A stretch of DNA of 32,000 bases from Edaphobacter aggregans (lineage in GTDB: Bacteria; Acidobacteriota; Terriglobia; Terriglobales; Acidobacteriaceae), in contig NZ_RSDW01000001.1 in assembly GCF_003945235.1 (NCBI RefSeq), positions 4,950,001-4,982,000 on the forward strand. The letters are read 5' to 3'. Positions 9,406 through 31,379 of this stretch are shown piece by piece. Under the pieces are notes generated by a model. The model saw only the letters and a program-made list of their open reading frames with translations, was not told where the DNA came from and did not search any database. The position numbers and the translations under genes are program-made. Position 1 is the stretch's first letter; the number at the start of each line of letters is the position of its first letter.

Positions 9406-11691
<2,286 letters not shown>

Positions 11692-11900
11692 TCTTGGAAG
11701 GTAGGCCTAGCGGCCATACACTGCTCAACCTCGACCTGGCCCCCCGGCTCATCCCGGACTAGGTTGAGGTTTGAGTGGCTCCGAACCACTGCCTCTGATC
11801 AAATTTGGGCTTCATCGGAGTTGGGCGGAGAACCCGCCAGGTGTCAGGAAATAAGTTGCATGGAATAAATAATTTGAAAGGCGGTGGATTGGGTTGTACA

Positions 11901-11931
11901 AAGGGAAAAGCTCACTCTCAAAAGAGAGAGC
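11901..11931 (-). terminator. Rho-independent terminator downstream of the tRNA/tmRNA-like 3' end (minus strand)
   Basis: Minus strand reads GCTCTCTC-TTTT-GAGAGTGAGC (bulged stem) followed by TTTTCCCTTT. It lies 34 nt after the CCA end. Confidence 0.5.
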
Positions 11932-11964
11932 AAGCATAAGTTATTGATAGTAAATATCTAATGA

Positions 11965-11992
11965 TGGTGGAGGCGGCGGGAGTCGAACCCGC
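11965..11992 (-). other. 3' fragment of a tRNA- or tmRNA-like gene (T-arm, acceptor 3' strand, ACCA); putative att core at the island border
   Basis: Minus strand reads GCGGG-TTCGACT-CCCGC-CGCCTCC-A-CCA. The ...CUCCACCA end (U70, A73) is the Ala-type identity shared by tRNA-Ala and tmRNA. No anticodon or D arm can be folded from the sequence upstream of it. Confidence 0.6.
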
Positions 11993-12029
11993 ACAGGGTA
12001 TTGAGAATAGGTAAGTTACTGAATTCAGG

Positions 12030-12064
12030 AAAGGCCAAAAGGACAAGAAAGGCCAGAAAGGCAA
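12030..12064. repeat. Four helically phased direct repeats AAAGGnCA (candidate recombinase/RDF arm-type sites)
   Basis: AAAGGCCA 12030, AAAGGACA 12038, AAAGGCCA 12048, AAAGGCAA 12057 (spacing 8-10 bp), about 40 nt inside the putative att core. Confidence 0.35.
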
Positions 12065-12070
12065 ATCGAC

Positions 12071-12087
12071 TGTACAAACGTTGTACA
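12071..12087. promoter_or_regulatory. Inverted repeat TGTACAA-ACG-TTGTACA next to the direct repeats
   Basis: Perfect 7-bp arms with a 3-nt spacer. Candidate protein binding site at the island end. Confidence 0.3.
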
Positions 12088-12360
12088 AAATCGGGCTCCT
12101 TCCACGCCTGTCCGTGGCTGCTTACCTTGCGCCAATCCGATTCTAAATGCACCTCCTGGCTACGAAACTAGATTTTCTTCGCTCCGGTGGCGGTTAAGAA
12201 CTGAGTCTAAGCTGAGCTTGAGGCGTCTGTGTTCCGAGTCAGTCCATCCGCCGGAAACGCATTTGTAGATGGGAGGTCGGAAAAGCACCTTGGACTCCAC
12301 CAAATCATCATCCTCAATCCGAACCGATCCAACACCGCAACTGCTTTCGAAGCCGATACG

Positions 12361-12645
12361 TCAAGCAATACCCTGAAGGCGACGGTGAACCCGCTGGACG
12401 ACGCTCTCCGGGACCCGGAGAGTTGAATATCCTCTCTTGAATCTGGACTCTTCGTGAATCAGCTGTAGCACTCCGGGTTCGCGGGTGAATATTCGCCGGA
12501 TCGTTCTTTCGCTTAGTTCCCAGAGCTTCGCCAGCTCAGGTACGGAATAGTGCTTTTCCAAAGCCACTCCGGACCGCGGCCTGCGTATTCCGTCGTGGTT
12601 ACTCGAGTCAAGTGAGACTGTTGTCGGAGTGTTTTGAGGTTCCAT
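12361..12645 (-). CDS. Excisionase/AlpA-type helix-turn-helix DNA-binding protein
   Basis: HYSVPELAKLWELSERTIRRIFTREPGVLQL is a MerR-superfamily/excisionase-like HTH. Start taken at the internal ATG 12645 (MEPQNTP...), which follows GAGAG. Confidence 0.55.
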   Translation of the reverse strand: MEPQNTPTTVSLDSSNHDGIRRPRSGVALEKHYSVPELAKLWELSERTIRRIFTREPGVLQLIHEESRFKRGYSTLRVPESVVQRVHRRLQGIA

Positions 12646-12883
12646 TGTCATCTCTCGTTGCCAAATTTGAAAGCGCAGCAGCGAATCCCAAGTCATCTGA
12701 GAAGTACAGGCTGGTGCCGTCACCTGTTTTCCGACAGGGGAAAACGTGCACCATGTGTGTAAAACAGGTTCGAAATTCGGTCAAATGGCTCTGACGGAGC
12801 CGCCAGGGTCGACGGTGAGGTGGGCTAGCGCCATCACTAGGGTAAGCGGGACAATGATGCTCTTGACCAATCCGGTGCTTTCG

Positions 12884-13160
12884 GAATAGGGAAAACGCCG
12901 TCCGATTCTTAAGGATCACCATCTTATCTAATTCAATTTCCGAAGCCAGATTCAGGCTGTGCGTAGACACGATGAGCTGAATATCTTGTCCGTCCGGGCG
13001 CTTCTTGCGCACTTGATCCTGTAGAAAGCGCATCAGCCTGACACTGAGAGTGCCGGTGTGCTTCGTGTTTCCTCGATGATGAGCAGAGGAAACCCGTCGT
13101 TTTCGGAAGCTAGCAGCAATAGCTCACATGCCATGAAGATGAGGCTGAGCGGTGAACATC
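12884..13160 (-). pseudogene. Decayed C-terminal remnant of an ABC/SMC-type AAA ATPase (AAA_15/OLD-like)
   Basis: Three frames together give LSLIFMACELLLLASENDGFPLLIIEE (Walker B), then HEAH.H (PEAHLHP-like), then RLMRFLQDQV...QLIVSTHSLNLASEIELDKMVILKN (H-loop). At least two frameshifts, and no N-terminal Walker A part is present. Confidence 0.55.
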
Positions 13161-13357
13161 TTGGTCGTTATGTGTAAAACGAGTCCGGGTTTCAGTCAAA
13201 TTGCTGACTACAAGCTGGGAGGAGGGGCAGTTAAATTATTGAAAAAGTGAGCCTTACCCAATCGACAGGTTCGCGTCGCTGGCGAAGAACTGATTTCAAA
13301 ATTTAGGTCCTCTTACCGTTTTAAATTTGGGGAGCATAGCTGTAACCTTGCTCAGCA

Positions 13358-13849
13358 ATGAATGCTCTTCAGAAATCGGCCGATGAAATCGCAGCTTTGC
13401 TGCGCAGTGATTCAGCTTCGGAAGAACTCAAGCAGGCTGTCCGTCTGTTCTCTGAGGTCAATGTTGGACAGGCAATGAGCGACGCAGAAATGCTCGATCA
13501 GTTGTTTACTCGTCGTTTCGAAGCATGTCATGAAGAGTTTTTGGTTCACTCCGCCTGTAATTATCCCCATAATCAGGTGGCGATCGAACGGGTGATCAGA
13601 GAAATATCGAATAGCCGTTGCGACGCCGCGACCACACGCCTGATGAAAGCTATAGACAAGCTCAGAATTGAAAATGTCCAGCCTCGTGTACAGGGGCTCG
13701 AACTCTTCGCGATAGCCCGCGCGCTGATCTGCGTAAGTGTGAAGATGACGGGGGTTGACCAAGGGCTGAAAGATGCCCAATATGTTTTCGAGGCGGTATT
13801 GGACGACCTCACTCCCATGTTGAGGGAGATGCCAAATTCAGGGAGTTAA
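13358..13849 (+). CDS. Hypothetical protein (163 aa), no recognisable domain
   Basis: Intact ORF in the AT-richer island segment. Predicted helical and soluble. Confidence 0.5.
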   Translation: MNALQKSADEIAALLRSDSASEELKQAVRLFSEVNVGQAMSDAEMLDQLFTRRFEACHEEFLVHSACNYPHNQVAIERVIREISNSRCDAATTRLMKAIDKLRIENVQPRVQGLELFAIARALICVSVKMTGVDQGLKDAQYVFEAVLDDLTPMLREMPNSGS

Positions 13850-13854
13850 AAGTG

Positions 13855-14208
13855 ATGGGACGGAGACAATTGATTCTGACGGCGGCCCTTCTTATTTCAT
13901 CCATAGGGTGCAAAGTGGATCCGAAGCCTCCAACCGAGGCGGATGGGAGGCAGGTCTGGAAGAACCTCAACACGAGGTCTGGTCTTGATGGTGATCTTCA
14001 ACTTGCCGACTTCAAGAAGACTGACGGCCAGATGGCGGAGGTCAATGGTGTCAAGGTATACACGCTCTTCTACGAATTACACGAAAAACACCTGACCAAG
14101 CTGGGCCAATGGAAGCCGGGCGATATCGAGACTATCCGGTCGAACTATGGTTTTCAGAGGACAGAAAACGGGTGGCAGGGCCCTGAAGGGACTCATTTTC
14201 CCGATTGA
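13855..14208 (+). CDS. Putative lipoprotein
   Basis: Signal peptide with lipobox (LILTAALLISSIG-C). GGGAG lies 9 nt upstream of ATG 13855; GTG 13852 is an alternative start. Confidence 0.55.
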   Translation: MGRRQLILTAALLISSIGCKVDPKPPTEADGRQVWKNLNTRSGLDGDLQLADFKKTDGQMAEVNGVKVYTLFYELHEKHLTKLGQWKPGDIETIRSNYGFQRTENGWQGPEGTHFPD

Positions 14209-14243
14209 ACGGGTTTTTTGACCTAATTTCCAATCCGTCCTAA

Positions 14244-14276
14244 TCTCCCCCGGCTGATCAATTCAACCGGGGGAGA
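14244..14276 (+). promoter_or_regulatory. Perfect 10-bp stem hairpin whose 3' arm is the Shine-Dalgarno sequence of the MoxR-like gene
   Basis: TCTCCCCCGG-N13-CCGGGGGAGA. The 3' arm ends 4 nt before ATG 14281. No U-tract follows. Confidence 0.45.
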
Positions 14277-14280
14277 CGGG

Positions 14281-15231
14281 ATGTTCGAATCGCCGGAGCA
14301 AACCCTTTCAGCACTAAACAGGGTCGGGTATTTCACCGACTGCAAGACCGCGACGACGGTTTACCTCGCCGGAAACATCAACAAGCCCATCATGCTGGAG
14401 GGTCCTGCCGGCGCAGGTAAAACGGAGCTGGCCCAGTCGGTGGCACGCGCGGCCGGAGCAGACCTTATCCGGCTGCAGTGCTATCAGGGCATCAACGAAG
14501 AAAAGGCCATCGGCCACTTCGACAAAAGTCTGCAAGAGCTGTTTGTCCTGCTCAAGACAAAATCAGAGGAAACCTGCGACTGGGCACAAATCCGCCAGGA
14601 TGTGACCAGCCGTGCGTTTTTCCTTGCCGGCCCTTTGCTGACGGCAATCGAGAGGGAAAAGCGCTGTGTTCTGCTGATCGACGAGATCGATAAGGTTGAT
14701 TACGCATTTGAGGCACTTTTGCTTGAGGTGCTTTCGGACTGGACTATTTCGATTCCGAAGATGGGTACCGTCAAAGCGACAACGGTTCCGTTTGTCTTTA
14801 TGACATCCAACCAGGAACGACGGCTCGGGGACCCTCTTCGGCGGCGCAGCTTTTACCTGATCGTTGAGCACCCGACGGCCGAGAGGGAAGCGGCGATCGT
14901 CAAAAGCAAGACCCCAACGGCTACTGCCGCAACCCATCGTTTCATCGCTGGCCTCGCGAAAGCGCTTCGCTCCTTCAATCTCGAAAAGCCACCGAGTATC
15001 TCGGAGATGAATGACGTGGCCCAGGCCATGCAGTTGCTCAGCATGGAAGAGATCCTGGCCGTTCACAAAGACATCATGCTTCCGTTGATCGTGAAGACCG
15101 AAGGCGATCGCAAGCGAATGCTTATGAAGCAGGCATTTGAGGTGATTATCTACACGGCCCAGAGGAACGCCGAAGCGATGGAGGCCCAGGAGGTTGCGGC
15201 GACAATCGCAAGGTTGGAGGCAAGTGCATGA
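14281..15231 (+). CDS. MoxR-like AAA+ ATPase (AAA_5/CbbQ-NorQ-type)
   Basis: Walker A GPAGAGKTELA, LIRLQCYQGINEEKAIGHFD, Walker B VLLIDEIDKV, and sensor region TSNQERRLGDPLRRRS. Its stop overlaps the next start (ATGA). Confidence 0.8.
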   Translation: MFESPEQTLSALNRVGYFTDCKTATTVYLAGNINKPIMLEGPAGAGKTELAQSVARAAGADLIRLQCYQGINEEKAIGHFDKSLQELFVLLKTKSEETCDWAQIRQDVTSRAFFLAGPLLTAIEREKRCVLLIDEIDKVDYAFEALLLEVLSDWTISIPKMGTVKATTVPFVFMTSNQERRLGDPLRRRSFYLIVEHPTAEREAAIVKSKTPTATAATHRFIAGLAKALRSFNLEKPPSISEMNDVAQAMQLLSMEEILAVHKDIMLPLIVKTEGDRKRMLMKQAFEVIIYTAQRNAEAMEAQEVAATIARLEASA

Positions 15232-15734
15232 GAGGGAAGCTAGTCGTGGCATTTTTCGCCGCTATGTCACTGAGTGCGGCGGCGCAAAGCTCACGCTCTT
15301 CCGAATTTACTGCTCCGGAGTCCGTGTACTACGCCAACGCATACGCTGACCACTACGGCGTTCCCCGCGAGCTGGTCCACGCAGTCATCGCGCAGGAATC
15401 TGGCTGGAATCAGCGTGCTCTCTCCGGAAAGGGCGCTATCGGACTCATGCAGTTGATGCCCGACACCGCAATCCGCTTCTCGGTGCAGAACCCCACCTCT
15501 ATTCAGGACAACATCGGCGGGGGCGTTCGCTACCTTGCCAAGCTCAGCGAACTCTTTCATGGCGATCTGCGCATGGTGGTTGCGGCCTACTACTGTGGCG
15601 AACACCACATTCTTACAAGTGGCCTGCGCTACCACAACGCCGAAGTGATCGCGTATGTCGGCTCGGTCGAGAAGAGGTACGAACGTGAGTTGGCGCTTCA
15701 TCATCCCGGCAACCTGAAAGGAACAGGACAATGA
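15228..15734 (+). CDS. Lytic transglycosylase (SLT domain), VirB1-like
   Basis: Signal peptide, then catalytic-Glu motif AVIAQESGWNQRALSGKGAIGLMQLMPDTA...VVAAYYCG. Confidence 0.8.
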   Translation: MRGKLVVAFFAAMSLSAAAQSSRSSEFTAPESVYYANAYADHYGVPRELVHAVIAQESGWNQRALSGKGAIGLMQLMPDTAIRFSVQNPTSIQDNIGGGVRYLAKLSELFHGDLRMVVAAYYCGEHHILTSGLRYHNAEVIAYVGSVEKRYERELALHHPGNLKGTGQ

Positions 15735-16708
15735 GAACTGTCTGCAATTGCATTTATGTCGCTATTACACTCGCATTCACAGCAGGCGGCTTGTGCCAGC
15801 AAGTGAAGGTGCAAGCGGTGACTGCGCCGCTCGCGGACCGCAAGTCTGAGCCAGTCGTGAGCGATGTCACGGTCTCGAAGGCAGCCGTCACCGATGTGCA
15901 TCTGCGGCCGCTCTTCACGACGACCATCCGTTTGCCTGATGCGGTCTCCTCCGTCGCTGTCGGTGCGCCGACTCTGTTTGAAGCCGAACATGCAGACCAG
16001 GAACCGCGGCTGGTCTACATCAAGCCCGCGACGAAGCAGCCCGCGGAGAGCAACCTCGTGATCACCATGCGGTCCGGTGAGACGATCAGCATGCGATTGA
16101 TTTCGGACGGGAACTCCGCCCTGAACGAACCGGTGGACTACATCGTCGATTACAAGCCGCAGGAGAGCTTCTTCATCGGATCATCCGATCCGATCACGCA
16201 GAAATCTCAGGCCCAGCGCACGGAAGAGAAGCATGACCCGCTCGATCTAGCTCTTCAGGGGCAGGCGCGAGTGTCCACGCCAGCCTGGCAGTCGAGCACC
16301 GCGCTCGATGAGAAGACGAGCAAGATAAGTTCTCCCTCCATCGTCGGGGCTCTGGGCGAAATCCGGGAGATCAACGGAAGGATGTTGGTGGCCTACTCCG
16401 TACGAAATCAGAGCAATCACTGGATTGAGGTGCTTCCGCCGCAGATCGAGGTAAGCAGCCCGGGCGACAAGAGCGAAATTAAGAAAAAAGACAGGAAGCA
16501 CATCGTCGAGGCGGAACAAGTCCCGGTAAACAGCTTCAAGGTCAATGGCCGCCGCCTAGCTCCTGGCGAAAGAGTGGATGGAGTCGTGACCTTCGATCGT
16601 CCCGGATTCAAGCAGAGCCAGGAAAGACTGCTTCTCGAGCTGGCCTCGGCCAACTCGGTTGATAAGCCCCTGTTGCTTCCAGTTCCGTTCGTCGCGCCCG
16701 GTAACTAA
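15731..16708 (+). CDS. VirB9/TrbG-like outer-membrane-complex protein (paralog 1)
   Basis: Signal peptide. The N-domain pattern VHLRPLFTTTIRLPDAVSSVAVGAPTLFEAEH...LVYIKPATKQPAESNLVITMRSGETISMRL matches the VirB9/CagX/TrbG fold signature. The C-terminal beta-domain is shared with the ORF at 30528. Confidence 0.55.
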   Translation: MRTVCNCIYVAITLAFTAGGLCQQVKVQAVTAPLADRKSEPVVSDVTVSKAAVTDVHLRPLFTTTIRLPDAVSSVAVGAPTLFEAEHADQEPRLVYIKPATKQPAESNLVITMRSGETISMRLISDGNSALNEPVDYIVDYKPQESFFIGSSDPITQKSQAQRTEEKHDPLDLALQGQARVSTPAWQSSTALDEKTSKISSPSIVGALGEIREINGRMLVAYSVRNQSNHWIEVLPPQIEVSSPGDKSEIKKKDRKHIVEAEQVPVNSFKVNGRRLAPGERVDGVVTFDRPGFKQSQERLLLELASANSVDKPLLLPVPFVAPGN

Positions 16709-16735
16709 TTCAGCTCTATTCCAAGGAGAATCCAT

Positions 16736-18013
16736 ATGCCGATGCCCAACCCACTTCCTGAAAGGGAAGAAGCGAATGTTCCTAGAGAGGAGGGGCACGT
16801 GGTTCCTCTCGATTCCTCTTCTGCCGAGCTCAAACCCTTCGTTTTGCCGAATCGGACCGGAGGCAAAGGAGGAAAAGACAAGACCGCCAAGATGCTGCTG
16901 ATTATGATCGGTGCCGTGATTCTTTTCGTAACCTTCTTTGGGTTTATTTCAACCAAGGGGTTGCACAAGAAAAAGGCCAGTGCTGATGAGGCAGCAAAGC
17001 CAAACCTAGGGAGAGTAGTCACGCCCAGCGCCCCTGGAGCACTCATACCAAGTGACAAGATGGCGGTGCCTCCCGCTGCGGGAAAGAGCGGTACACTCGA
17101 CGCGAGCGACATTGAAAAGACGAAGGCCCCTGTTACTGGCAGTGCCGCGGCAACTGCCGGCGCCAGTTCGGCGGCGCAAAAGGGCAGCGTTTCGGCTAAC
17201 AAGACGCTGGGAGATGTGGCTCAATTCCAGCAGCCGAATACCGATCCGGAACACCTGAAGAACTGGAAGCCGGAACCGTATTCAGGCACAAACCAGGGAA
17301 ACAACGCTTCGCAGTCCCAGGAGATCCAGAAAGAACAAGATGAGTTTTCAAAGCCCTCTGTGGTCTTCGTCGCCCACGAAACAACAGGGTCGCAGCGGGG
17401 TGGCATCCAGATGCAGCCGGAACCCGACAACTTCGGTTTAGAATCCGGCTACCATGTCGCAGCAAGACTGGAAGCAATGGCGAGTACCGCATTGCACGCG
17501 CCGGTGACCGCGGTGATCGAATACAACTACGATCGCAATGGAAAAATTCTTATACCGGCAGGTGCTCGCGCAGTCGGCAAAATCGCGCAGGCAGACGCCA
17601 CGGGGATTTTAGATATCCAGTTCAGTTCGATTGAGCTGCAGGATGGTCAATCCATTCCCATCTCAGCGATTGCAGCCACTACATCCCTGCAGGCATTGAA
17701 GGGACAGGTAACAGGAAAGAATGCTGGTCGCAGTTTCGCCATCCGCTCCCTGGCAGGTCTGGGACAAGCTGGAGCAATGCTCATCGGACAGGGAAATATC
17801 AATAGTGCAATCAGCGAGTCGGACATGATTCGCGAGCGAGCGGCGGAAAACATCGGCAACAGCGCGGACGCTCAGGTGATGAATCTAATGACGACGCAGC
17901 ACATTGTTGTCAGCGTTCCCGCTGGCACAGAGATCTACCTGATCTTCACCAAGCCTCAAAAGGTCAATCCAACTGCGGCCCAGACCATATCCGTTGCAAC
18001 CAACACTCAATAG
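16736..18013 (+). CDS. VirB10/TrbI-like protein
   Basis: N-terminal tail, one TM (LLIMIGAVILFVTFFGFI), an Ala/Pro-rich linker, and a C-terminal TrbI domain (ARLEAMASTALHAPVTAVIEYNY...ILIPAGARAVGKI...SVPAGTEIYLIF). AAGGAG RBS present. Confidence 0.8.
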   Translation: MPMPNPLPEREEANVPREEGHVVPLDSSSAELKPFVLPNRTGGKGGKDKTAKMLLIMIGAVILFVTFFGFISTKGLHKKKASADEAAKPNLGRVVTPSAPGALIPSDKMAVPPAAGKSGTLDASDIEKTKAPVTGSAAATAGASSAAQKGSVSANKTLGDVAQFQQPNTDPEHLKNWKPEPYSGTNQGNNASQSQEIQKEQDEFSKPSVVFVAHETTGSQRGGIQMQPEPDNFGLESGYHVAARLEAMASTALHAPVTAVIEYNYDRNGKILIPAGARAVGKIAQADATGILDIQFSSIELQDGQSIPISAIAATTSLQALKGQVTGKNAGRSFAIRSLAGLGQAGAMLIGQGNINSAISESDMIRERAAENIGNSADAQVMNLMTTQHIVVSVPAGTEIYLIFTKPQKVNPTAAQTISVATNTQ

Positions 18014-21057: not shown

Positions 21058-23781
21058 ATGCCCAAGACTCGTGAAGCACACAAGCGTTCTTTGGAGGATC
21101 CCGCCTTCTGCGAGCTACTTCCCATGAGGGACCTACTGGACAACGTGATGGTCCGAACCGACGGCAGCTACGTCGCGGGATTTCGCCTGTCCGGTGCGCT
21201 AACTTACTTCGGTGATGACGACAGCCGCAATGAAACCAAAGAGCTGGTGGAATCGCTTCTGCGTACAGTACCGGAGCAGAGTATGCGGCTCCAATTCCGT
21301 TATGAAGTGGTGGAAGGCCTCACGGGCCTGCTGGCGCGTTACGAAGACCATCGGCGTACCGACAATCCCGAAGCGCTAATACTGGACCGCTATCGCGTGA
21401 AGCAGTGGAGCACGAAGGAAGCGCAAGGCGAATATCTCACCCGACTCGCTGCCGTCTACCTGATCTGGGACCCGGAGAGGCATCGGCGGTTGATGGCAGC
21501 CGCGGGCGGTCAGATGAAACGAAGTGGAGACAAAAACAGTAAACATCCGTTCTCTCTGTCACTCCACAAGTGCATTGAACGATCGAAAAAAGAACATACG
21601 GACGCTCTAGCCGAGTTTGAATCCATCGTCAGCGGCGTGCAGTCGTCCCTGAATCGAGCGGCGATGGGTCCAGAGCGGATGAACCATGAAGAGCTTTTCC
21701 TCGAGATTAAGAGGGCGCTCAATCCGACGCTGCCGGATACGGCGGAGCTTAGGGACTTCGATCTCTCTCCGCGATATGTGTCGGCGCGAGAACAGGCCGC
21801 GATCGTCTCCATCCTTGGAGATGCGGAGAACTACCTCAATATCGATGGCCTGCTCTGGAGCATCATCACGTTGAAGGTGCCTCCGGATGGCACGTACCCG
21901 GGCATTCTGCGGTCGTTGTTGACGGTCGGTTTTCCGCTTGTGATTTCCACCCAGGTCACAGTACCGGACCAGCGTGCAGTCCTCGACAAGTACAAGAAGC
22001 GCCTGAAGAAGATGCAGGCAGCGCAGATCGATTCAAAAGGGAATCGAAGGGTCGATATTGAAGCGCAGGTTGCAACGCAGGAACTTATCGATATTCAGGC
22101 CGAGATCCTGGCGAGTTCGGTGAAGACGACCAAGGTAAGCCTGACGATCGCTGTCCGCACTTCGCTGCCGGCGTTCAGCAGTCACGAGTATGAGGCTGCG
22201 GAGCGCGAACTATCGAACCGGCGCCAGCAGGTCCTCCACATCGTCTCGCAGCTCAACGGGGCACGTGCCTACGGTGAATCCCTGGCGCAGAGGAGATTGC
22301 TGATCTCCACCATGCCGGGAATGGCGTCCGAGGATAGCCGGGACCATGACCTGCTCACTACCCACGCGGCGGATCTCCTCCCGGTAGAGATGCCGTGGGC
22401 CGGGACACCTAGAACGCCGCTGATGCTCTTTGAAACGCCATACCGGCAACTGATTCCGTTCTCTCCGTTCGATGCCGGACTGGAGAACGCGAACGCCATC
22501 GTTGCCGCCGCCTCCGGAGCAGGCAAAAGCGTAGTCGTCGGGCGAATGCTGTTGACCTGCAGCCGGCAGGATGTGCAGATCTCGATCATCGAGCGTGGAG
22601 ATTCCTACTTCCCGGCCGTGACATATATGGGCGGCCAGATGATCTCTATGTCGCTCGATAGCCTGCAGACGATCAACCCGTTCGATCTTGAGGTTGATGA
22701 GCATGGCCCGTCGAACGACCATCTTGCTTTTTTGAAGAACCTCACGCGCTTCATGATCGGCGACAGTGGAGGAGCCGACGCTGACCTGTTGGACAATCTT
22801 CTGCTCACGGCCATTGAGAAGACCTATAACCGGGCTGCCATGCGGTCGGGCAGCAGGATCCCGACTTATAGCGACCTGAAAGATGAGCTCGAAAATTACC
22901 ATGACGAGGACAAGAACGAGATCATAAATCAGGAAGCAAGACTCGCCGCCACGAAGTTGCGCGCATGGGTGGAGAACGGAATGTATGCGAACCTGTTCGA
23001 CCGTCCCACCACGGTTGATATGTCGGCGCCCTGGCTCTACTTCAATATCGAACAGCTCAAGGACGACCCAAAGCTGGAGACTGCGATGAGTCTGCTGATC
23101 GCGTATGCGACCAATAAGCGGGCTATGGGCAAGGGAAACAAGCGATGCGTCACGGTTCTCGATGAGTGCTGGTCCCTGCTGCAATCGCCAAGTCTAGGGC
23201 CCGTCGTCGTGCAGTTATTCAGGACAGCACGCAAACGGAACGCCTGCGTATGGGGACTTTCGCAGGCGGTAGAAGACTTCACCGGCACACCGGACAAGCC
23301 AAACGAATTTGGCGGCGCAATCCTTACCACCACGGCAACGAAGCTGATTGGCCGGCAGAAGGGGAATATTGATGTGCTTCGCCAATTCGTCCACCTGAAT
23401 GAGACGGCCATTCATCGCGTCAAGAACCTGGGCATGACGGAGAAGGGCAAAAAGAGCGAATTCCTTCTAGTAATCGGCGAGAAGTCAGAGACGACGCACA
23501 GCTTGTATATCGTGACGACGCCGCTCGAGTACTGGCTGTTGACCACTTTTCCGCGGGAGAAGTGGTACAGGCAGTACTGGCTTAAGAAGCATTCCCACCT
23601 CACACCAACGGAAGCCTATGAGCGACTCGCCGCGGCATTTCCGCGCGGCCTGTCGACGCTGGATGAATTGCCGGAAGAAAAATCCGGCGAGGTTATGACG
23701 GTTGCACTCGGACGATCGAGTTCCGTGGCCATGGCAAAAACCATCATTCAAATTGAAGAAGACGCATTACAGGAGGTATAG
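21058..23781 (+). CDS. VirB4/TrbE/TraC-type conjugation ATPase
   Basis: 907 aa. Walker A AAASGAGKSVVVG, Walker B CVTVLDECWSLL, and a C-terminal motif region (GLSQAVEDF). Confidence 0.9.
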   Translation: MPKTREAHKRSLEDPAFCELLPMRDLLDNVMVRTDGSYVAGFRLSGALTYFGDDDSRNETKELVESLLRTVPEQSMRLQFRYEVVEGLTGLLARYEDHRRTDNPEALILDRYRVKQWSTKEAQGEYLTRLAAVYLIWDPERHRRLMAAAGGQMKRSGDKNSKHPFSLSLHKCIERSKKEHTDALAEFESIVSGVQSSLNRAAMGPERMNHEELFLEIKRALNPTLPDTAELRDFDLSPRYVSAREQAAIVSILGDAENYLNIDGLLWSIITLKVPPDGTYPGILRSLLTVGFPLVISTQVTVPDQRAVLDKYKKRLKKMQAAQIDSKGNRRVDIEAQVATQELIDIQAEILASSVKTTKVSLTIAVRTSLPAFSSHEYEAAERELSNRRQQVLHIVSQLNGARAYGESLAQRRLLISTMPGMASEDSRDHDLLTTHAADLLPVEMPWAGTPRTPLMLFETPYRQLIPFSPFDAGLENANAIVAAASGAGKSVVVGRMLLTCSRQDVQISIIERGDSYFPAVTYMGGQMISMSLDSLQTINPFDLEVDEHGPSNDHLAFLKNLTRFMIGDSGGADADLLDNLLLTAIEKTYNRAAMRSGSRIPTYSDLKDELENYHDEDKNEIINQEARLAATKLRAWVENGMYANLFDRPTTVDMSAPWLYFNIEQLKDDPKLETAMSLLIAYATNKRAMGKGNKRCVTVLDECWSLLQSPSLGPVVVQLFRTARKRNACVWGLSQAVEDFTGTPDKPNEFGGAILTTTATKLIGRQKGNIDVLRQFVHLNETAIHRVKNLGMTEKGKKSEFLLVIGEKSETTHSLYIVTTPLEYWLLTTFPREKWYRQYWLKKHSHLTPTEAYERLAAAFPRGLSTLDELPEEKSGEVMTVALGRSSSVAMAKTIIQIEEDALQEV

Positions 23782-26410: not shown

Positions 26411-27154
26411 ATGGAAGAGAGGAATAAGCAACGAGAGCCAAAGTTCTATGAGATGGATGGCGCTCTGCGCGCCTATTCAAACCGCAGTATTGCAATCGCC
26501 GGGGTGATGGGCCTTACCGCACTGATCGCGGTAATGGGGTTCTTCTTTGTCAGGATGCAACCGCCAACCGTCATCAAGGTGGATAGTGCAGGACAGGCGC
26601 AGGTCGTCAGCCCATACGGGGCCAGCGCGCATCGTGGGTTGTTGCCGTCGGTTCTTGCATCAGCCAGGACCGTGGGGCCGGACGAGTATGAGAAGCAGGC
26701 TTTCATCAAGCAGTTTCTTGGCCACTATCTCTCCTATGACCCGCACACCCTGGGCCAGAACTGGGCAGACGCCATGAACATGATGACGAGCAATCTGCGC
26801 CACACAGCTATTCAGCAGCTCCAAAAGGACAACGCCGTCGGCAAACTCGAGAACGAGCAGGCAATGTCGACTCTTAAGCTGGGCAGCCTTGAACCCAACA
26901 AGGAGAACCCTCTGACCTACGAGGCCTTTGGCGTACGCACGGTTCATCGAATGGTCAACGAGCACGAAATTACCGACAAGCTGGTGGAGCAATATCACCT
27001 GCGGTTGGTGAGCATGGAGCGTTCGGCCGACAATCCTGATGGCTTGTTAGTAGGTGAGTACTGGTCCAGGCAGATCGAGGGTGAAAAGCGCGATGCCGTG
27101 CTCGGAGCTATACCTGGTGTCGAATCGGAAAATACAGGAGGTGAAAACAACTGA
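26411..27154 (+). CDS. VirB8/TrbF-like protein
   Basis: Short cytoplasmic N-terminus, one TM (IAIAGVMGLTALIAVMGFFFV), and a periplasmic domain of about 190 aa. GGAGG lies before ATG 26411. The longer track ORF overlaps the virB6 3' end. Confidence 0.6.
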   Translation: MEERNKQREPKFYEMDGALRAYSNRSIAIAGVMGLTALIAVMGFFFVRMQPPTVIKVDSAGQAQVVSPYGASAHRGLLPSVLASARTVGPDEYEKQAFIKQFLGHYLSYDPHTLGQNWADAMNMMTSNLRHTAIQQLQKDNAVGKLENEQAMSTLKLGSLEPNKENPLTYEAFGVRTVHRMVNEHEITDKLVEQYHLRLVSMERSADNPDGLLVGEYWSRQIEGEKRDAVLGAIPGVESENTGGENN

Positions 27155-27444
27155 TGAGTACAGCCACGGTCAATACACTTGCGGAGCTCGTGCGCAATGA
27201 TAAGCCGCGCCGAACCCGGAGAACCCAGGAGAAGCCCGACACTGTTACCACGCGCTTCTTCATGGGGGATTCAGGAGAGGGTTCAATATCGCTGACGCAG
27301 GAGTTCGCAAGCGAAGTCGAAGCACAACTAGAGTCGTTGAAGCTCAACCGGCCCTACTACACGCTTGAATCCTGGAGAGCGGTAGCGGATCTGAGTAATG
27401 GAAGTATCGCTGTGCAGAAGCGCGCTGCTAGTAGCAGGACCTAG
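27154..27444 (+). CDS. Hypothetical protein (96 aa), coupled to virB8-like gene
   Basis: TGATG overlap with the upstream stop. Basic N-terminus (KPRRTRRTQEKP). No domain recognised. Confidence 0.4.
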   Translation: MSTATVNTLAELVRNDKPRRTRRTQEKPDTVTTRFFMGDSGEGSISLTQEFASEVEAQLESLKLNRPYYTLESWRAVADLSNGSIAVQKRAASSRT

Positions 27445-27516
27445 ACGCGGCCGGCGGACAAGATCAGAAAAATCGTCACGTTAGCCAATGCTACCGTTTC
27501 GGTTTTCTCTGAGCCA

Positions 27517-27539
27517 CCTTGCGGGCTTTACTCGCAAGG
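27517..27539 (+). terminator. Hairpin CCTTGCG-N9-CGCAAGG after the virB2-virB8 block (weak terminator candidate)
   Basis: 7-bp perfect stem followed by ATTTGT. Lies 73 nt after the stop at 27444. Confidence 0.3.
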
Positions 27540-27682
27540 ATTTGTCCCGCTGACCCGGCTGCTTCAAGCCTGGTTAGTCCCTTCAACAGGGCATGAAAGA
27601 CCAGGCAAAGCCGGAGATGCGGTCCTCTCTACGGTATTGCCGGTCTCTTCGTGTCGCAACCACCAGCACAAGGAGACTCGCT

Positions 27683-30103
27683 ATGCACACGATGGAAGGA
27701 AACCGAATCGTGATGTTGGACATACAAAAAAACGGCAGCATCGTCGAGCGTATCCCCGGCGTAGGCCAGGATTCGACGACAGCGAACACGCTGCTCGGAG
27801 CTATGTATCCCGACGTCAAGGTCGCAATCGTAAGCGTCCCGACCGAGGTTCTCGAAGACTTCGAGGAAGCGGCGGTAGCGCGCACACTCACCGGCATTCG
27901 TCACAGCGGAGTGCACCTCAAGATGGTCGGAGCCTCCGGTTCGGCCAAAAACGGCAAATACTACTTCTGCGACGCTGCCCACGAGTCCCTGCTCGCGAGA
28001 CGCTTCGAGATGTGGCCTGAAGCCGCTATCACCTACTTCGGCATCCTTGTATCCAACCTCAAAGTGGTTCGCAAGGAAGCTGATCAGGTTGTCCTCGTCG
28101 TTCCCGACCTGAAGCTTGGTACCAACGATTGCAGAGGTTGGATCAGAAGAAGTCTCTTTCTGAAGCTACGGCTTCCGGAGGGGTACTTCTATCAGTTCCG
28201 TCTTGCATTCGAGAATACCCAGGCTAAGGGCAGCTTCAAGATCATGGAGGATGATGTTGCCGATGCACTTGGCTGCGACATCATTCTTCCGGAAAGCTCG
28301 GTCAAACCCGGATTGAGGAAGCAGTCTGTTCTCAGTACTGTTCTCGGTTCGGATGTACGCACGTTTCGTGGCCCGATCGTCTTAGGCATCCGGGAGATCT
28401 CTCGGCCGCTGACATTCGAATCGAGTTACACCGTGCTGCAGCACGCCCCGGTCGACGCAATTGCCACTGAGATTGTGCCGCAGGCGCGTGAAAAGATCGA
28501 CATCCTGAAAGCTGCATGGCGGGAGCGTAATCACGAAGTGATCGTCGAGATGATTGGTTCCGCGATCCGTTCCGATGATGAATCCGGGGAAGAAGAGTTC
28601 CAGAGAATCATCGAAGCGACCCTGCTTGCCGATGGAAGTGGGGAGCTTACACGGCATCCTTACATTCATCGCCAGTTGGACCGCCTTCTCGCACGCTGGG
28701 CTTACAAACTCATGACCGGCGGAGGCCTTGATCTACCGGCGTTCGCGCTGGCCGATGATGGCATCCTCTACCTTCATAACGGCAAAGTGATGTCGGCAGC
28801 CGATTGGATGCCGCGTGACTCGGCCATCAGCTCCAGCACTTCGGATCGGAGTCTTTGCGTTCGATATCCGGTTCGAATGAAGGAAGATCTGCTGCCCATG
28901 ATCCACCTTACTGCTGGTGAAACGGCCAATCTGCTTGCCGATCTCCAGGGCCTCTCGTTGGAATTTGCGCTGAGAATTACCACCGAGCAATTGACGCTGA
29001 AAGGCACGTATACCCTCCACTCCGAGACCGCCAAGCTGAATGGTGGCGACTTCGATTTTGACTGGGTATGCATCCTCGAGAGCGAACGCTTTCCGTTGTT
29101 CGTTGCGGACCGCTTCGCCCTGGTGGACGAACACAAGGTCACGAAGACCAAGCACGAGCGTGTGAAGTCTCCGTGGTTCAATCTTGAGTTCGTTGCCTTG
29201 AAGTCACGGGGCAATCAGATTGGTGTGATTACGGACCTGATGAGTTCCTGCGTCGCTGCCGATCGTCACGACTTGCTCTATGAGCTCGTCGCCGAACTGC
29301 AGAAAGAGATCGATTCGCTCAAGCACAATATCCGTGCAGATCGAAGCAAGCTGCACTCGATTAGAACCGAGGTTGGAAACGCGGCTTGGCTCTCTCTCAA
29401 GAATGCCAAGACCGTGTCTGAACTTCCGATATGTCTCGAGGTTTCGAAGACGGACCGGATAGGCAACCTGTACAACGTGCTCCGCAAAGACATCGCGGAC
29501 CTGTTGGAAAGGCCGTTTCCGATCGAGCAGTTTCGAGGCCTGATCACTGGCGGAGATATCTCGAGAGAGATATTTCAGGAAGTGCGCCTGGTGAATACCG
29601 TCTATGCAGCAGGGCACGGTGTCATTCAGAAAGCGTTTCTTGAAGCCAAGGACGTCTATGAAAAGGCACAGGAACGGGTAACGGCCGCCGTTCAATCCGG
29701 TGACCAGAACTCGATCAAGCACATGAAGAGGGAACTCGCGAAAGCGAGTGCCAACTTCCGTCGTGTTGAAGAGTCCACACGCGATCAGTCTCGCTCGCTC
29801 CAGGCCATCATGTCGTTCTGGGGGCAGGGCAAGCATGAGAACCGTGAGGGCTGGTGCTCTGCTCTCCACACCATCGTTTCGCGTGGAAAGGGAATGGGGT
29901 CAATTCTGTTCCATGCGTTTCCTCAGGAGGTAGTTAACGCAATTGCAGAACGGACCGGGGGCAAGAAAACCATGCTTCAGATGAAAGATAAAGAGGGCTC
30001 CGTCGTTATCGAAGGAGGCTCCTTCTTTTTCGTTCGCGGTACGCAAAAGAGCCTTATTTTCCGGTTGGATTGGGAGAAAGGATCGCTTGTGTACCGACAA
30101 TGA
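27683..30103 (+). CDS. Single-chain two-barrel (double-psi beta-barrel) RNA polymerase-like protein, YonO / cellular RdRP-like
   Basis: Barrel 1: YQFRLAFENTQAKGSFKIMEDDVADALGCDIILPESSVKP (compare beta-subunit GDK..RHGNKGV.S....EDMP...G..DI.LNP.G..SR and RdRP Q.R.gG.KG). Barrel 2: CVRYPVRMKEDLLPM...LHSETAKLNGGDFDFDWVCI (compare beta' NR.PTLH...NADFDGD and RdRP DxDGD). AAGGAGA RBS lies 6 nt before ATG 27683. Confidence 0.55.
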   Translation: MHTMEGNRIVMLDIQKNGSIVERIPGVGQDSTTANTLLGAMYPDVKVAIVSVPTEVLEDFEEAAVARTLTGIRHSGVHLKMVGASGSAKNGKYYFCDAAHESLLARRFEMWPEAAITYFGILVSNLKVVRKEADQVVLVVPDLKLGTNDCRGWIRRSLFLKLRLPEGYFYQFRLAFENTQAKGSFKIMEDDVADALGCDIILPESSVKPGLRKQSVLSTVLGSDVRTFRGPIVLGIREISRPLTFESSYTVLQHAPVDAIATEIVPQAREKIDILKAAWRERNHEVIVEMIGSAIRSDDESGEEEFQRIIEATLLADGSGELTRHPYIHRQLDRLLARWAYKLMTGGGLDLPAFALADDGILYLHNGKVMSAADWMPRDSAISSSTSDRSLCVRYPVRMKEDLLPMIHLTAGETANLLADLQGLSLEFALRITTEQLTLKGTYTLHSETAKLNGGDFDFDWVCILESERFPLFVADRFALVDEHKVTKTKHERVKSPWFNLEFVALKSRGNQIGVITDLMSSCVAADRHDLLYELVAELQKEIDSLKHNIRADRSKLHSIRTEVGNAAWLSLKNAKTVSELPICLEVSKTDRIGNLYNVLRKDIADLLERPFPIEQFRGLITGGDISREIFQEVRLVNTVYAAGHGVIQKAFLEAKDVYEKAQERVTAAVQSGDQNSIKHMKRELAKASANFRRVEESTRDQSRSLQAIMSFWGQGKHENREGWCSALHTIVSRGKGMGSILFHAFPQEVVNAIAERTGGKKTMLQMKDKEGSVVIEGGSFFFVRGTQKSLIFRLDWEKGSLVYRQ

Positions 30104-30221: not shown

Positions 30222-30461
30222 ATGCAGATTCTTTTCTGGCGTGTGGAACGGTCCACCAAGTCAAGCCTAACCGCGGTACGCATCAACGTGCAGCGCAATT
30301 CTGAAGGCTACGTTTACCAATGGAAAGTGGCCGACAGAAAGCGGCGACTCAGTAAGCGAGAGCTGCACGAACTAGATATGAGGGTAGCCAAGTATGTGGC
30401 CACTCGAAACGACAACCCTCCGGCGCGACCGGAGCACAAAACATACTTTGCACATCTTTAG
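30222..30461 (+). CDS. Hypothetical basic protein (79 aa)
   Basis: GGGAGA RBS before ATG 30222. The N-terminal part of the 124-aa track ORF overlaps the polymerase 3' end and is low-complexity. Confidence 0.4.
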   Translation: MQILFWRVERSTKSSLTAVRINVQRNSEGYVYQWKVADRKRRLSKRELHELDMRVAKYVATRNDNPPARPEHKTYFAHL

Positions 30462-30527: not shown

Positions 30528-31379
30528 ATGAGGTCTAGGGTAGCAGCTCTAATCCTGGCCGTCGGGAGCGTTGCCTCGGCTCAGACCATCACACACCAAC
30601 AGGTTAACTCCAATATTGTTACTCCGGTTGCGACAGCGTTGAACCACCTCAGCCTGATCGAGCTTCCGGAACCGATCACCCGGGCAGCGGTGGGCAGCGA
30701 CGACATCCGCATCGAATGGCACGGCAATACTGTTGCTCTCAAGCCCATCCGGCAGGGCCAGTCCACAAATCTCTTTGTATGGACCGAACATACCCAGTCT
30801 ACTTACGAGATTCTTCCTCCAGGCGATGTGAAGGGCGCGTCTTTTGTCATCGACGAATCGAACGGGTTTGGGTCTGCGCCGACCGAATCCCAGGTGAAGG
30901 TCAGCGAGACGGACATCCAGAAGGCCGCCGATACGCTCATCGCCCAGGCGATGTTGCAAAGCTCGCTTGTCGACAGCCGCGAGATCAAGGACGCAAAAAA
31001 ACATATCAATGTGCGCATCACGGAGGTTGTGCGCGACAAGGATACCCTTTATGTCCGCTATACCCTCTCCAATCCGAGCCGGCACGCGTACCGGGTGAGC
31101 GATCCAGCGGTATTCACCTTCAGTCCAAACGATGTCAGGGACGTGGTGGGCTCGCTCAAGGGGATACAGATTCCGCAACAAAAGATGGATGCGCTGGGTT
31201 CGGGTACAACGTCCACTGTCATCGTTCGGGAGGCGCATATCGCGAGCCGTGATCTGAATCCGGGCCAGACGGTCGATGGCGTGGTGTGCTTCAAAGAGGC
31301 AGACGCGAAACCGATCGTCTATCGCTTCGTGTTTGGAAACGACGAGTCGCATCCGGTCAGCGCGGCGGCGGTGCTGTGA
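30528..31379 (+). CDS. VirB9/TrbG-like protein (paralog 2)
   Basis: Signal peptide (ALILAVGSVASAQ). The N-domain has LSLIELPEPITRAAVGSDDIRIEWHGNTVALKPIRQGQSTNLFVWTEHTQSTYEIL. The C-domain has LYVRYTLSNPSRHAYRVSDP...GQTVDGVVCF, which parallels 15731's LVAYSVRNQSNHWIEVLPP...GERVDGVVTF. Confidence 0.55.
   Translation: MRSRVAALILAVGSVASAQTITHQQVNSNIVTPVATALNHLSLIELPEPITRAAVGSDDIRIEWHGNTVALKPIRQGQSTNLFVWTEHTQSTYEILPPGDVKGASFVIDESNGFGSAPTESQVKVSETDIQKAADTLIAQAMLQSSLVDSREIKDAKKHINVRITEVVRDKDTLYVRYTLSNPSRHAYRVSDPAVFTFSPNDVRDVVGSLKGIQIPQQKMDALGSGTTSTVIVREAHIASRDLNPGQTVDGVVCFKEADAKPIVYRFVFGNDESHPVSAAAVL

Follow-up and report, generated by a model that had tools for sequence, protein, structure and literature searches.

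The subject of this analysis is a stretch of 32,000 nucleotides from Edaphobacter aggregans (contig NZ_RSDW01000001.1, positions 4,950,001 to 4,982,000), referred to below as the window. Within it, a locus encoding a conjugation-type type IV secretion system (T4SS) contains a gene (27683..30103, + strand) whose product, a soluble protein of 806 amino acids (aa) and 90 kDa, has the predicted fold and the candidate catalytic residues of a single-chain two-barrel RNA polymerase (RNAP). Such enzymes carry two double-psi beta-barrel (DPBB) domains, and the protein falls in the clade of QDE-1 and related RNA-dependent RNA polymerases (RdRPs). The polymerase gene is a core, fixed part of this type of T4SS locus in integrated elements of Acidobacteriota (Terriglobia). 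On the combined strength of its sequence and its structural model, we consider the protein very probably an active two-barrel polymerase that serves the element carrying it. A fuller reading draws in addition on analogy with characterized enzymes and seems to us fairly probable: as a core gene of the transfer module, it would encode a catalytically competent polymerase of this kind, and the enzyme would serve the element by RNA synthesis from a DNA template, most likely the transferred single-stranded DNA (ssDNA).

Single-chain two-barrel RNAPs are rare. They are regarded as relics of the ancestor from which all cellular RNAPs derive, or as models for it. In the literature surveyed here, those characterized so far comprise one enzyme from the bacterial side, the prophage polymerase YonO (PMC5467207), and a few phage enzymes.

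Fold and catalytic signature of the encoded protein

The ORF listing of the window gives a first-ATG open reading frame (ORF) at 27593..30103 (+), which would encode 836 aa. The sequence places the true start at the ATG at 27683 rather than at 27593, because a Shine-Dalgarno sequence (AAGGAG, 27670..27675, +) precedes it by 7 nt and homologs of 806 to 815 aa share the same N-terminus; the Shine-Dalgarno block is also kept in the aligned upstream regions. The original prediction, made from the letters of the sequence, had given the gene these boundaries and a length of about 806 aa. It had also pointed to a lysine/glycine segment (QFRLAF...SSVKP) and to an Asp triad (DFDFD). The ORF is intact, and both segments lie where they had been placed, at residues 171-209 (28193-28309) and 456-460 (29048-29062), respectively.

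Direct searches with the protein against Pfam, NCBIfam, PHROG, PADLOC, and PDB sequences (phmmer for the PDB) gave no meaningful match, nor did a search of PDB sequences with a profile of alignment A1, which comprises 25 homologs at 48-85% identity. Pfam RNA_pol_Rpb1 and Rpb2 were not matched either, and no homology to the conserved core of the beta and beta' subunits (~500 residues, with the SBHM flap insert and the funnel and switch-2 residues) was found in this way. With no direct profile match available, the identification rests on structure and on transitive homology. Sequence analysis detected no transmembrane-like segment and gave an isoelectric point (pI) of 6.7.

An AlphaFold2 model built on A1 reached a predicted local distance difference test score (pLDDT) of 83.4 and a predicted template modeling score (pTM) of 0.77. 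It contains beta-rich modules at residues ~128-246 and ~350-466, with a helical connector between them and a long helical region after them. When the model was compared with the PDB using Foldseek, seven chains were matched at E<=1e-3, every one of them a single-chain two-barrel RNAP. These were QDE-1 (5fsw chains A and B, E 8.8e-14 with a query TM-score, TMq, of 0.50, and E 1.6e-12), gp64 of Thermus phage P32 (8f72 chains A and B, E about 1e-7), gp62 of Thermus phage P74 (8f5m chains A and B, E 2e-7 to 2e-6), and the virion RNAP gp66 of crAss-like phage phi14:2 (6vr4, E 2e-6). Lower ranks were taken by Rpb1 chains of Pol IV and Pol II (E 0.05-0.5) and by isolated DPBB domains. In the viral library BFVD, the top matches were a phage protein annotated as 'RNA dependent RNA polymerase' (E 8e-14), P23-45 gp64, and proteins of crAss-like phages. 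A structure search of this kind had been named in the original prediction as a way to check it, and its outcome bears the assignment out.

In the model, two DPBB domains appear to follow each other in single-chain order (basic-residue barrel, connector, Asp-triad barrel), which matches the order described for single-chain two-barrel RNAPs (bioRxiv 10.1101/2022.12.01.518664). The predicted first barrel (DPBB-B, beta-subunit-like; 28064..28420, +; residues ~128-246), delimited by model strands and invariant columns, holds D149 (28127-28129, in 'LGTNDCRGW'), R173 (28199-28201), and K182-G183 (28226-28231, in 'QFRLAFENTQAKGSFK'), the last followed by 'DIILPESSVKP'. The second (DPBB-A, beta'-like and metal-binding; 28730..29080, +; residues ~350-466), delimited by the model and invariant columns, holds R394-Y-P396 (28862-28870, in 'CVRYPVRMKEDLLP') and D456-F-D458-F-D460 (29048-29062, in 'NGGDFDFD'), with a variable two-helix insert at residues 411-437 between the R-x-P motif and the Asp triad. 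A carboxyl-terminal helical region (residues ~499-760) and a small terminal beta domain (773-803) together span 29177..30100 (+). The helical region contains invariant 'GNQIGVITD', 'LQKEIDSLKH', and 'FHAFPQE' as well as a long helical hairpin at 628-715. To judge from the domain order described for single-chain two-barrel RNAPs (bioRxiv 10.1101/2022.12.01.518664), this carboxyl-terminal part presumably corresponds to their bridge-helix and clamp-type elements.

Eight residues have been reported to define two-barrel RNAPs, in QDE-1 D709, R738, K743, R962, P964, D1007, D1009, and D1011, with counterparts D837/K979/K987 in Rpb2 and R446/P448 plus the Asp triad in Rpb1 (PMC2919709). The protein studied here has an invariant candidate for all eight. 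By alignment, D149, R173, and K182 are the candidate equivalents of QDE-1 D709, R738, and K743, while R394, P396, D456, D458, and D460 are those of R962, P964, D1007, D1009, and D1011. All are invariant in A1, as is G183, in the contexts LGTNDCRGW, QFR...AKGSFK, VRYPVRM.EDLLP, and N453-G-G-D456-x-D458-x-D460. Relatives at about 22-25% identity keep the signature positions in register too, and the motifs recur in them with occasional substitutions as TGDxxG, QxR...KG, RYPxR, and GD(F/Y)DGD. From amino acid frequencies, we estimate that about 0.2 DxDxD strings are expected by chance per 800-aa protein. On its own the DFDFD string is therefore weak, and it is more than chance because it is conserved among the homologs. 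The signature as a whole is under strong purifying selection. The two hallmarks of the original prediction, KG and DFDFD, thus proved invariant in all 25 homologs, as it had proposed to check; its description was incomplete, however, as the full signature also includes D149 and R173.

Among characterized enzymes, Neurospora/Thielavia QDE-1 and the eukaryotic cellular RdRPs (PF05183) are structurally the closest: the QDE-1 alignment, the best found with Foldseek, extends over most of both proteins, and the barrel order and eight-residue signature are the same. QDE-1 is moreover described as having both DNA- and RNA-dependent activity (PMC9508822). The two proteins nevertheless differ in several respects. 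They share only about 13% identity when structurally aligned, R and K in the first barrel are spaced by 9 residues here but by 5 in QDE-1, and the catalytic loop reads DFDFD instead of DYDGD. In addition, the protein described here is bacterial and encoded in a T4SS operon, with no link to RNA-silencing partners.

A sequence family connected to RdRPs through distant relatives

The family is large. Clustering at 90% identity divides it into more than 1,537 clusters, each annotated as hypothetical and none with a Pfam domain, and an exhaustive profile search yielded 776 representatives at 50% identity. In species-representative genomes 507 loci were found, nearly all in Terriglobia, including the genera Edaphobacter, Granulicella, Terracidiphilus, Ca. 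Angelobacter, and Ca. Sulfotelmatobacter, on chromosomal contigs of up to 7 Mb. Most of the related loci come from metagenome-assembled genomes (MAGs). A few loci lie in MAGs labeled as Acetobacteraceae, Ca. Dormiibacterota, and Bryobacteraceae (L012, L080, and L005/L018), for which either binning error or cross-phylum transfer is possible.

The Pfam RdRP profile (PF05183) did not match the protein itself, even at E<=1. Searches with the A1 profile, however, recovered distant full-length relatives (E 1e-41 to 1e-48), and some of these do match PF05183: at a cutoff of 23.8 bits, relative P0258 scored 31.5 bits and P0249 23.6 bits, with weaker scores for others. P0258 reads TGDGEG ... QVRLHGESWLGKG ... 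TRYPIRD ... DGDYDGD, and so has the 9-residue R-to-K spacing of the protein in the window together with the DYDGD catalytic loop of QDE-1. When A1 was aligned by hhalign to A7, a profile of nine distant relatives, the probability was 100% (E 6.4e-83); the alignment extends over 627 columns and keeps all the motifs in register. The best matches of the A7 profile among PDB sequences were the RdRP entries 7w82 (E 0.046) and 7w84 (E 0.11), both marginal. In the alignments of A7 to plant RDRs, TGDchgkis is nevertheless matched to FSDGIGKIS, QvRl...KGT to QIRYGGYKGV, and GDfDGD to GDLDGD. By these searches, the connection to PF05183 is solely transitive, through distant relatives. Taken together, the alignments indicate that the family is a new family-level branch of the two-barrel clade formed by RdRPs, QDE-1, and 'YonO-like' proteins.

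SPbeta YonO resembles the protein in size (839 versus 806 aa) and is likewise encoded by a mobile element. Read from the SPbeta record, it also has the same motif grammar (D249, R266, K271 / R492-x-P494, D535-x-D537-x-D539). No sequence relationship was detectable, however. The hhalign comparison of the family with YonO gave E 0.49, BLASTP returned nothing meaningful, and phrog_8308, the PHROG of YonO, did not match the protein, whereas YonO itself scored 1220 bits against it. Membership of the YonO family was rejected on these grounds. The original prediction, which had called the protein YonO- or RdRP-like, therefore stands as regards a two-barrel, RdRP-like class and fails as regards the YonO family, with which only the motif grammar is shared. 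In the profile searches it had suggested, the protein itself matched no RdRP or RNAP profile, and its distant relatives bridged to PF05183. No homolog was found by tblastn in 50,697 phage records either. With no match in these records, in PHROGs, or in PADLOC, a phage origin and a known defense system were both left unsupported.

Distant relatives occur in other genomic settings. On short metagenomic contigs (L085/L086, 138-686 and 1130-3490), a serine recombinase (resolvase) gene directly precedes the gene for P0258, and this locus may be of the kind mentioned in the literature as 'transposon relatives' (PMC7824862). P0242 sits in another kind of gene cluster. Homologs were also found on conjugative or mobilizable plasmids of cyanobacteria, namely Pseudanabaena plasmid ABRG53a (L090, 7858-10224) and Nostoc plasmid pn3 (L091, 11782-15153). 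They are true sequence homologs with the signature intact (for Pseudanabaena WP_126390519.1, BLASTP gave E 2e-33 at about 24% identity over 570 aa); they are uncharacterized and annotated as hypothetical, and the group was listed as 'YonO-like' in 2010 (PMC2919709). Their genes neighbor those for a Rho-N-domain protein, an N6 methylase, a 1,400-aa DEAD/DEAH helicase, a TIR protein, and Hachiman HamA.

The transfer operon and the structured element upstream of the gene

The position of the polymerase gene among the T4SS genes is rigidly conserved. Across 83 related loci (22 kb each; the basis of the synteny counts below unless stated otherwise), a VirB8 gene lies about 1.25 kb upstream of it in 76, a VirB4 gene about 6.7-7 kb upstream in 70, and a VirB9-like gene 2.5-3.3 kb downstream of its start in 78. 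This synteny is kept even where the polymerase is only 45% identical. In the 80 best loci the polymerase gene has VirB8 on one side and a VirB9-like gene on the other, with the gene for the type IV coupling protein (T4CP) further downstream. For a more divergent relative, P0145 (profile E 1e-167), linkage to a VirB9-like gene, a T4CP gene, and an AEP-TOTE gene persists. The T4CP gene falls beyond the end of the window and is downstream in all 57 related loci with enough sequence, so that a VirB4 ATPase, mating-pair-formation genes, and a T4CP occur in one locus when the related loci are taken into account. A single 4.8-Mb Terriglobales contig (CAVPBA010000002.1) contains two copies of the module 3.6 Mb apart (L007 and L033), with polymerases of 81% and 63% identity to the one described here; two divergent copies on one chromosome fit a mobile element.

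Downstream of the T4CP gene, all 57 of these loci carry a Replic_Relax-like gene, a weak assignment, and 42 of them carry an AEP-TOTE primase-like gene within 10 kb downstream. Examples of these downstream genes are found in L002 (16936-17709 and 19341-20315), L004 (17011-17880 and ~21490), and L087 (6132-7247). No canonical MOB relaxase was recognized in the related elements. The T4SS context given in the original prediction was thus correct, as VirB4/TraC-like, VirB8, and CagX/VirB9-like genes are present in the window, and the linkage of homologs to T4SS genes that it had asked about is seen across the related loci. Its statement that no primase or relaxase is visible holds for the window but not for the related elements, given their Replic_Relax-like and AEP-TOTE genes.

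In the window, the transfer module starts with four genes at 14281..18013 (+). These encode an AAA+ ATPase (14281-15231, +), an SLT lytic transglycosylase (15228-15734, +), a first CagX/VirB9-like protein (15731-16708, +; a weak match that also touches DUF2381), and a TrbI/VirB10-like protein (16736-18013, +; annotated from the orthologue in L001). A VirB4/TraC-like T4SS ATPase gene follows at 21058..23781 (+; Pfam P-loop_TraG, 5.6e-17), and a VirB8-like gene at 26411..27154 (+; Pfam VirB8 at 5e-5, at threshold, with VirB8 annotated in L001). Directly upstream of the polymerase gene is an ORF of 96 aa (27154..27444, +), found at a fixed distance in 63 of the 83 loci and with 52 homolog clusters. 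Its product has a basic disordered N-terminus, a small alpha/beta core, and an invariant 'EAQLESLK...W.AVADLS.G.IA'. All its homologs are hypothetical, and no family or fold match was found (model pLDDT 63.6, best Foldseek E 1.6), which gave no support to the idea that it is an accessory factor. On the other side, a small ORF for a basic product of 79 aa (30222..30461, +; pI ~10.5) lies between the polymerase gene and a second CagX/VirB9-like gene. This ORF had tblastn matches in 31 of the 83 loci, in closer clades only, and is called as an 81-aa gene in L001; its product might bind nucleic acid. The second CagX/VirB9-like gene (30528..31379, +) has a weak Pfam CagX match, above threshold in L002 and L087, and touches DUF2381 as well. 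Two weak CagX/VirB9-like genes in one transfer locus, as duplicated parts of the outer-membrane complex, are unusual for a minimal T4SS.

Positions 1-11.7 kb of the window hold ordinary chromosomal genes (an extracytoplasmic function sigma factor, MacB/FtsX, a major facilitator superfamily transporter, isochorismatase, MarR, and KatG). Between katG, which ends at 11691, and the first transfer gene, ~11700-14280 contains small ORFs, including one for an HTH_23 protein (12361-12723, -), and GC content dips to 0.50-0.52 at 12-14 kb. Because of this dip, the region probably marks the left junction of the element or its regulatory end; the right end falls outside the window. A tRNA scan of the window found none.

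The operon is tightly packed, save for a spacer of ~240 bp (27445-27682) upstream of the polymerase gene, in which sequence blocks are conserved in all clades. A structured non-coding element was delineated in it at 27515..27630 (+), consisting of a hairpin P1 (27518-27540) and a long hairpin P2 with several helices, in which the near-invariant 'GCTGACC' forms the basal 5' arm. The P1 stem varies in sequence and yet stays paired (CCTTGCG/CGCAAGG, CCCTACA/TGTAGGG, and CTTCGTGG/CCACGAAG). Alignment with MAFFT/RNAalifold across all clades misaligned P1 and recovered P2 in part; a clade-specific alignment was used instead, with a covariance model built from that one clade on an RNAalifold consensus of 28 pairs. 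This model finds one copy per locus in the clades in which it detects the element, and each copy lies on the + strand just upstream of the polymerase gene. It also detects a clade outside the training set (E 3e-8 to 6e-4), and it matches the copy in the window with E 0.003.

In the alignment derived from the model, which favors the structure through its fit, 94% of cells are paired, compared with 24-44% when partners are slid. In the same fitted, and hence structure-favoring, alignment, 33 double changes were counted against 8.9 expected, a number reached in 0 of 500 shuffles. G.U wobble pairs outnumber A.C pairs by 76 to 13, which points to the sense strand as the folding strand. Folding of the window copy as a single sequence barely beats shuffles (z -1.9 for the + and -1.3 for the - strand), so the case for a structure is made by the comparative data alone. 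An Rfam scan of the window returned no match, and neither a sigma-70-like promoter nor an intrinsic terminator was detected in the spacer. A terminator-plus-promoter explanation of the hairpins was rejected on that basis, as there is also no T-run after P1. The covariance model found no second copy of the element in 1.29 Mb, and a role as a dispersed promoter for the polymerase was rejected as well. The element could be a leader or regulatory RNA, a hairpin of the origin-of-transfer (oriT) type that includes a nick region, or a site of initiation on ssDNA.

Possible roles of the polymerase in conjugation

By analogy with YonO, a processive DNA-dependent RNAP in which the Asp triad is essential (PMC5467207), and with QDE-1, the protein would be expected to synthesize RNA on a nucleic acid template. 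We propose that this template is DNA and that the RNA is made for the element itself. The polymerase may act on the transferred single strand, making the first primer or primers and/or the first transcripts on incoming ssDNA in the recipient, with the upstream structured element, folded on the sense strand, as a candidate recognition or initiation site or as a leader RNA. Conjugative elements are known to co-transfer primases, and phages to inject RNAPs (PMC5512222). Action on the transferred strand, on the recipient side or on the displaced strand of the donor, is favored because the gene is co-oriented with the mating genes, with which it is probably co-expressed, and because elements deliver early enzymes together with their DNA. 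We put it forward tentatively, as it builds on analogy. The proposed role would resemble that of the conjugative primases with Toprim (RP4 TraC1, R64 Sog) or AEP/PrimPol domains, which make RNA on transferred ssDNA (PMC5512222). The fold is completely unlike theirs, however, and no Toprim or AEP/PrimPol domain was found in the protein with Pfam or NCBIfam.

A more specific version of this proposal takes its model from phage virion RNAPs. Two-barrel RNAPs of P23-45 include the virion protein gp96 and the stand-alone, promoter-specific gp64 (bioRxiv 10.1101/2022.12.01.518664). Both gp96 and gp66 of the crAss-like phage enter the target cell with the DNA through a translocation machine, and the likeness to the T4SS-linked polymerase is a proposed analogy. 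The model also matches the crAss-like gp66 and the Thermus gp64 and gp62 significantly in structure (E 7e-8 to 2e-6). The phage enzymes differ, however, in that they are fused to or packaged with virion parts, and their sequences are unrelated at the HMMER level. In this scenario, which we regard as speculative and rather unlikely, the polymerase would be made with the T4SS, delivered with or loaded onto the transferred strand, and would initiate at the structured site by its own gene. If so, synthesis of the primer or first transcript would be independent of the RNAP and primase of the recipient. No earlier conjugation system would then have had an RNA polymerase of its own, and the enzyme would be a counterpart of gp66 and gp96 in the cellular world.

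Several observations weigh against a role on the transferred strand. The cyanobacterial plasmid relatives lie outside T4SS operons, which means that a tie to secretion is not intrinsic to the wider family. The structured element occurs once per locus and hence is no dispersed promoter for the polymerase. If it is the sense strand that is transferred, a primer could be templated by this strand, whereas sense transcripts of the operon could not. Folding on the sense strand would fit an mRNA leader equally well. Moreover, a separate primase may exist, given the AEP-TOTE primase-like gene in 42 of 57 elements, and a pure primase reading is weakened by its presence in most of them. The original prediction had suggested either an element-dedicated transcriptase or a primase-like enzyme acting on incoming ssDNA. 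Overall, this interpretation is supported, with the primase version weakened for the reason just given.

The main alternative, possible if somewhat doubtful, is that the polymerase works in the donor as a dedicated transcriptase, which reads part of the genes of the element (those of the transfer or maintenance modules, for example) from element-specific promoters and is independent of the RNAP and sigma factors of the host. YonO, the best characterized bacterial single-chain two-barrel RNAP, transcribes the late genes of SPbeta (PMC5467207), and the promoter-specific gp64 of P23-45 acts as a stand-alone enzyme. In line with such a role, the gene shares its strand with the operon that it might drive, and no sigma-70-like promoter is detectable in the upstream spacer. 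However, YonO is phage-encoded, whereas the gene described here is fixed in a conjugation operon, amid mating-pair-formation genes rather than in a regulatory module. A search limited to the 22-kb loci and to the sole conserved non-coding motif found also detected no repeated promoter-like element: the motif occurs once per locus, which weakens a reading with multiple promoters.

It is a good deal less probable that the enzyme is RNA-templated or RNA-processing, acting like an RdRP on an RNA such as the upstream leader to give double-stranded, antisense, or extended RNA for regulation, inter-element conflict, or anti-defense. RdRPs provide both the best match in structure and the only curated family that was reached, a covarying sense-strand structure compatible with RNA lies directly upstream of the gene, and the cyanobacterial relatives are found among methylase, helicase, and defense-type genes. 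On the other hand, PADLOC gave no match, and the fixed place in an operon for DNA transfer favors a role linked to DNA. The crAss-like gp66 is a DNA-dependent enzyme. YonO and both gp64 and gp96 of P23-45 are likewise described as DNA-dependent (PMC5467207; bioRxiv 10.1101/2022.12.01.518664). Finally, use of the two-barrel fold as a structural part or nucleic acid-binding adaptor of secretion or DNA processing, with polymerization lost or irrelevant, would agree with a gene located between those for the structural VirB8 and VirB9, but it is highly improbable, as eight catalytic-site residues invariant in A1 and motifs recurring at about 22-25% identity are the pattern expected of an active enzyme and not of a scaffold, and as the protein is soluble and has no membrane segment.

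A full-text literature search returned no description of a two-barrel polymerase inside a conjugation operon or system. A survey of co-transferred proteins lists Toprim and PrimPol primases and, for phages only, an N4-like virion RNAP module; no DPBB or RdRP-type domain appears in it (PMC5512222). The enzyme class and its sporadic presence in bacterial mobile DNA were already known, and what is new is the fixed place inside a T4SS operon. The genera in which the family occurs include cultured representatives. With a soluble 90-kDa protein, an adjacent structured element, and these cultured genera, the question of its function is directly testable.

The family adds a very large and strongly conserved clade to the two-barrel RNAPs, with an unexpected fixed genomic setting across an abundant soil phylum. 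If the enzyme is a dedicated transcriptase, this would be the first conjugative element known to have its own RNAP of the two-barrel class. If instead a role of the polymerase on transferred DNA is confirmed, it would provide a third way to start on incoming ssDNA, besides co-transferred primases and ssDNA promoters read by the host RNAP, and it would link conjugation mechanistically to the virion RNAPs of phages.

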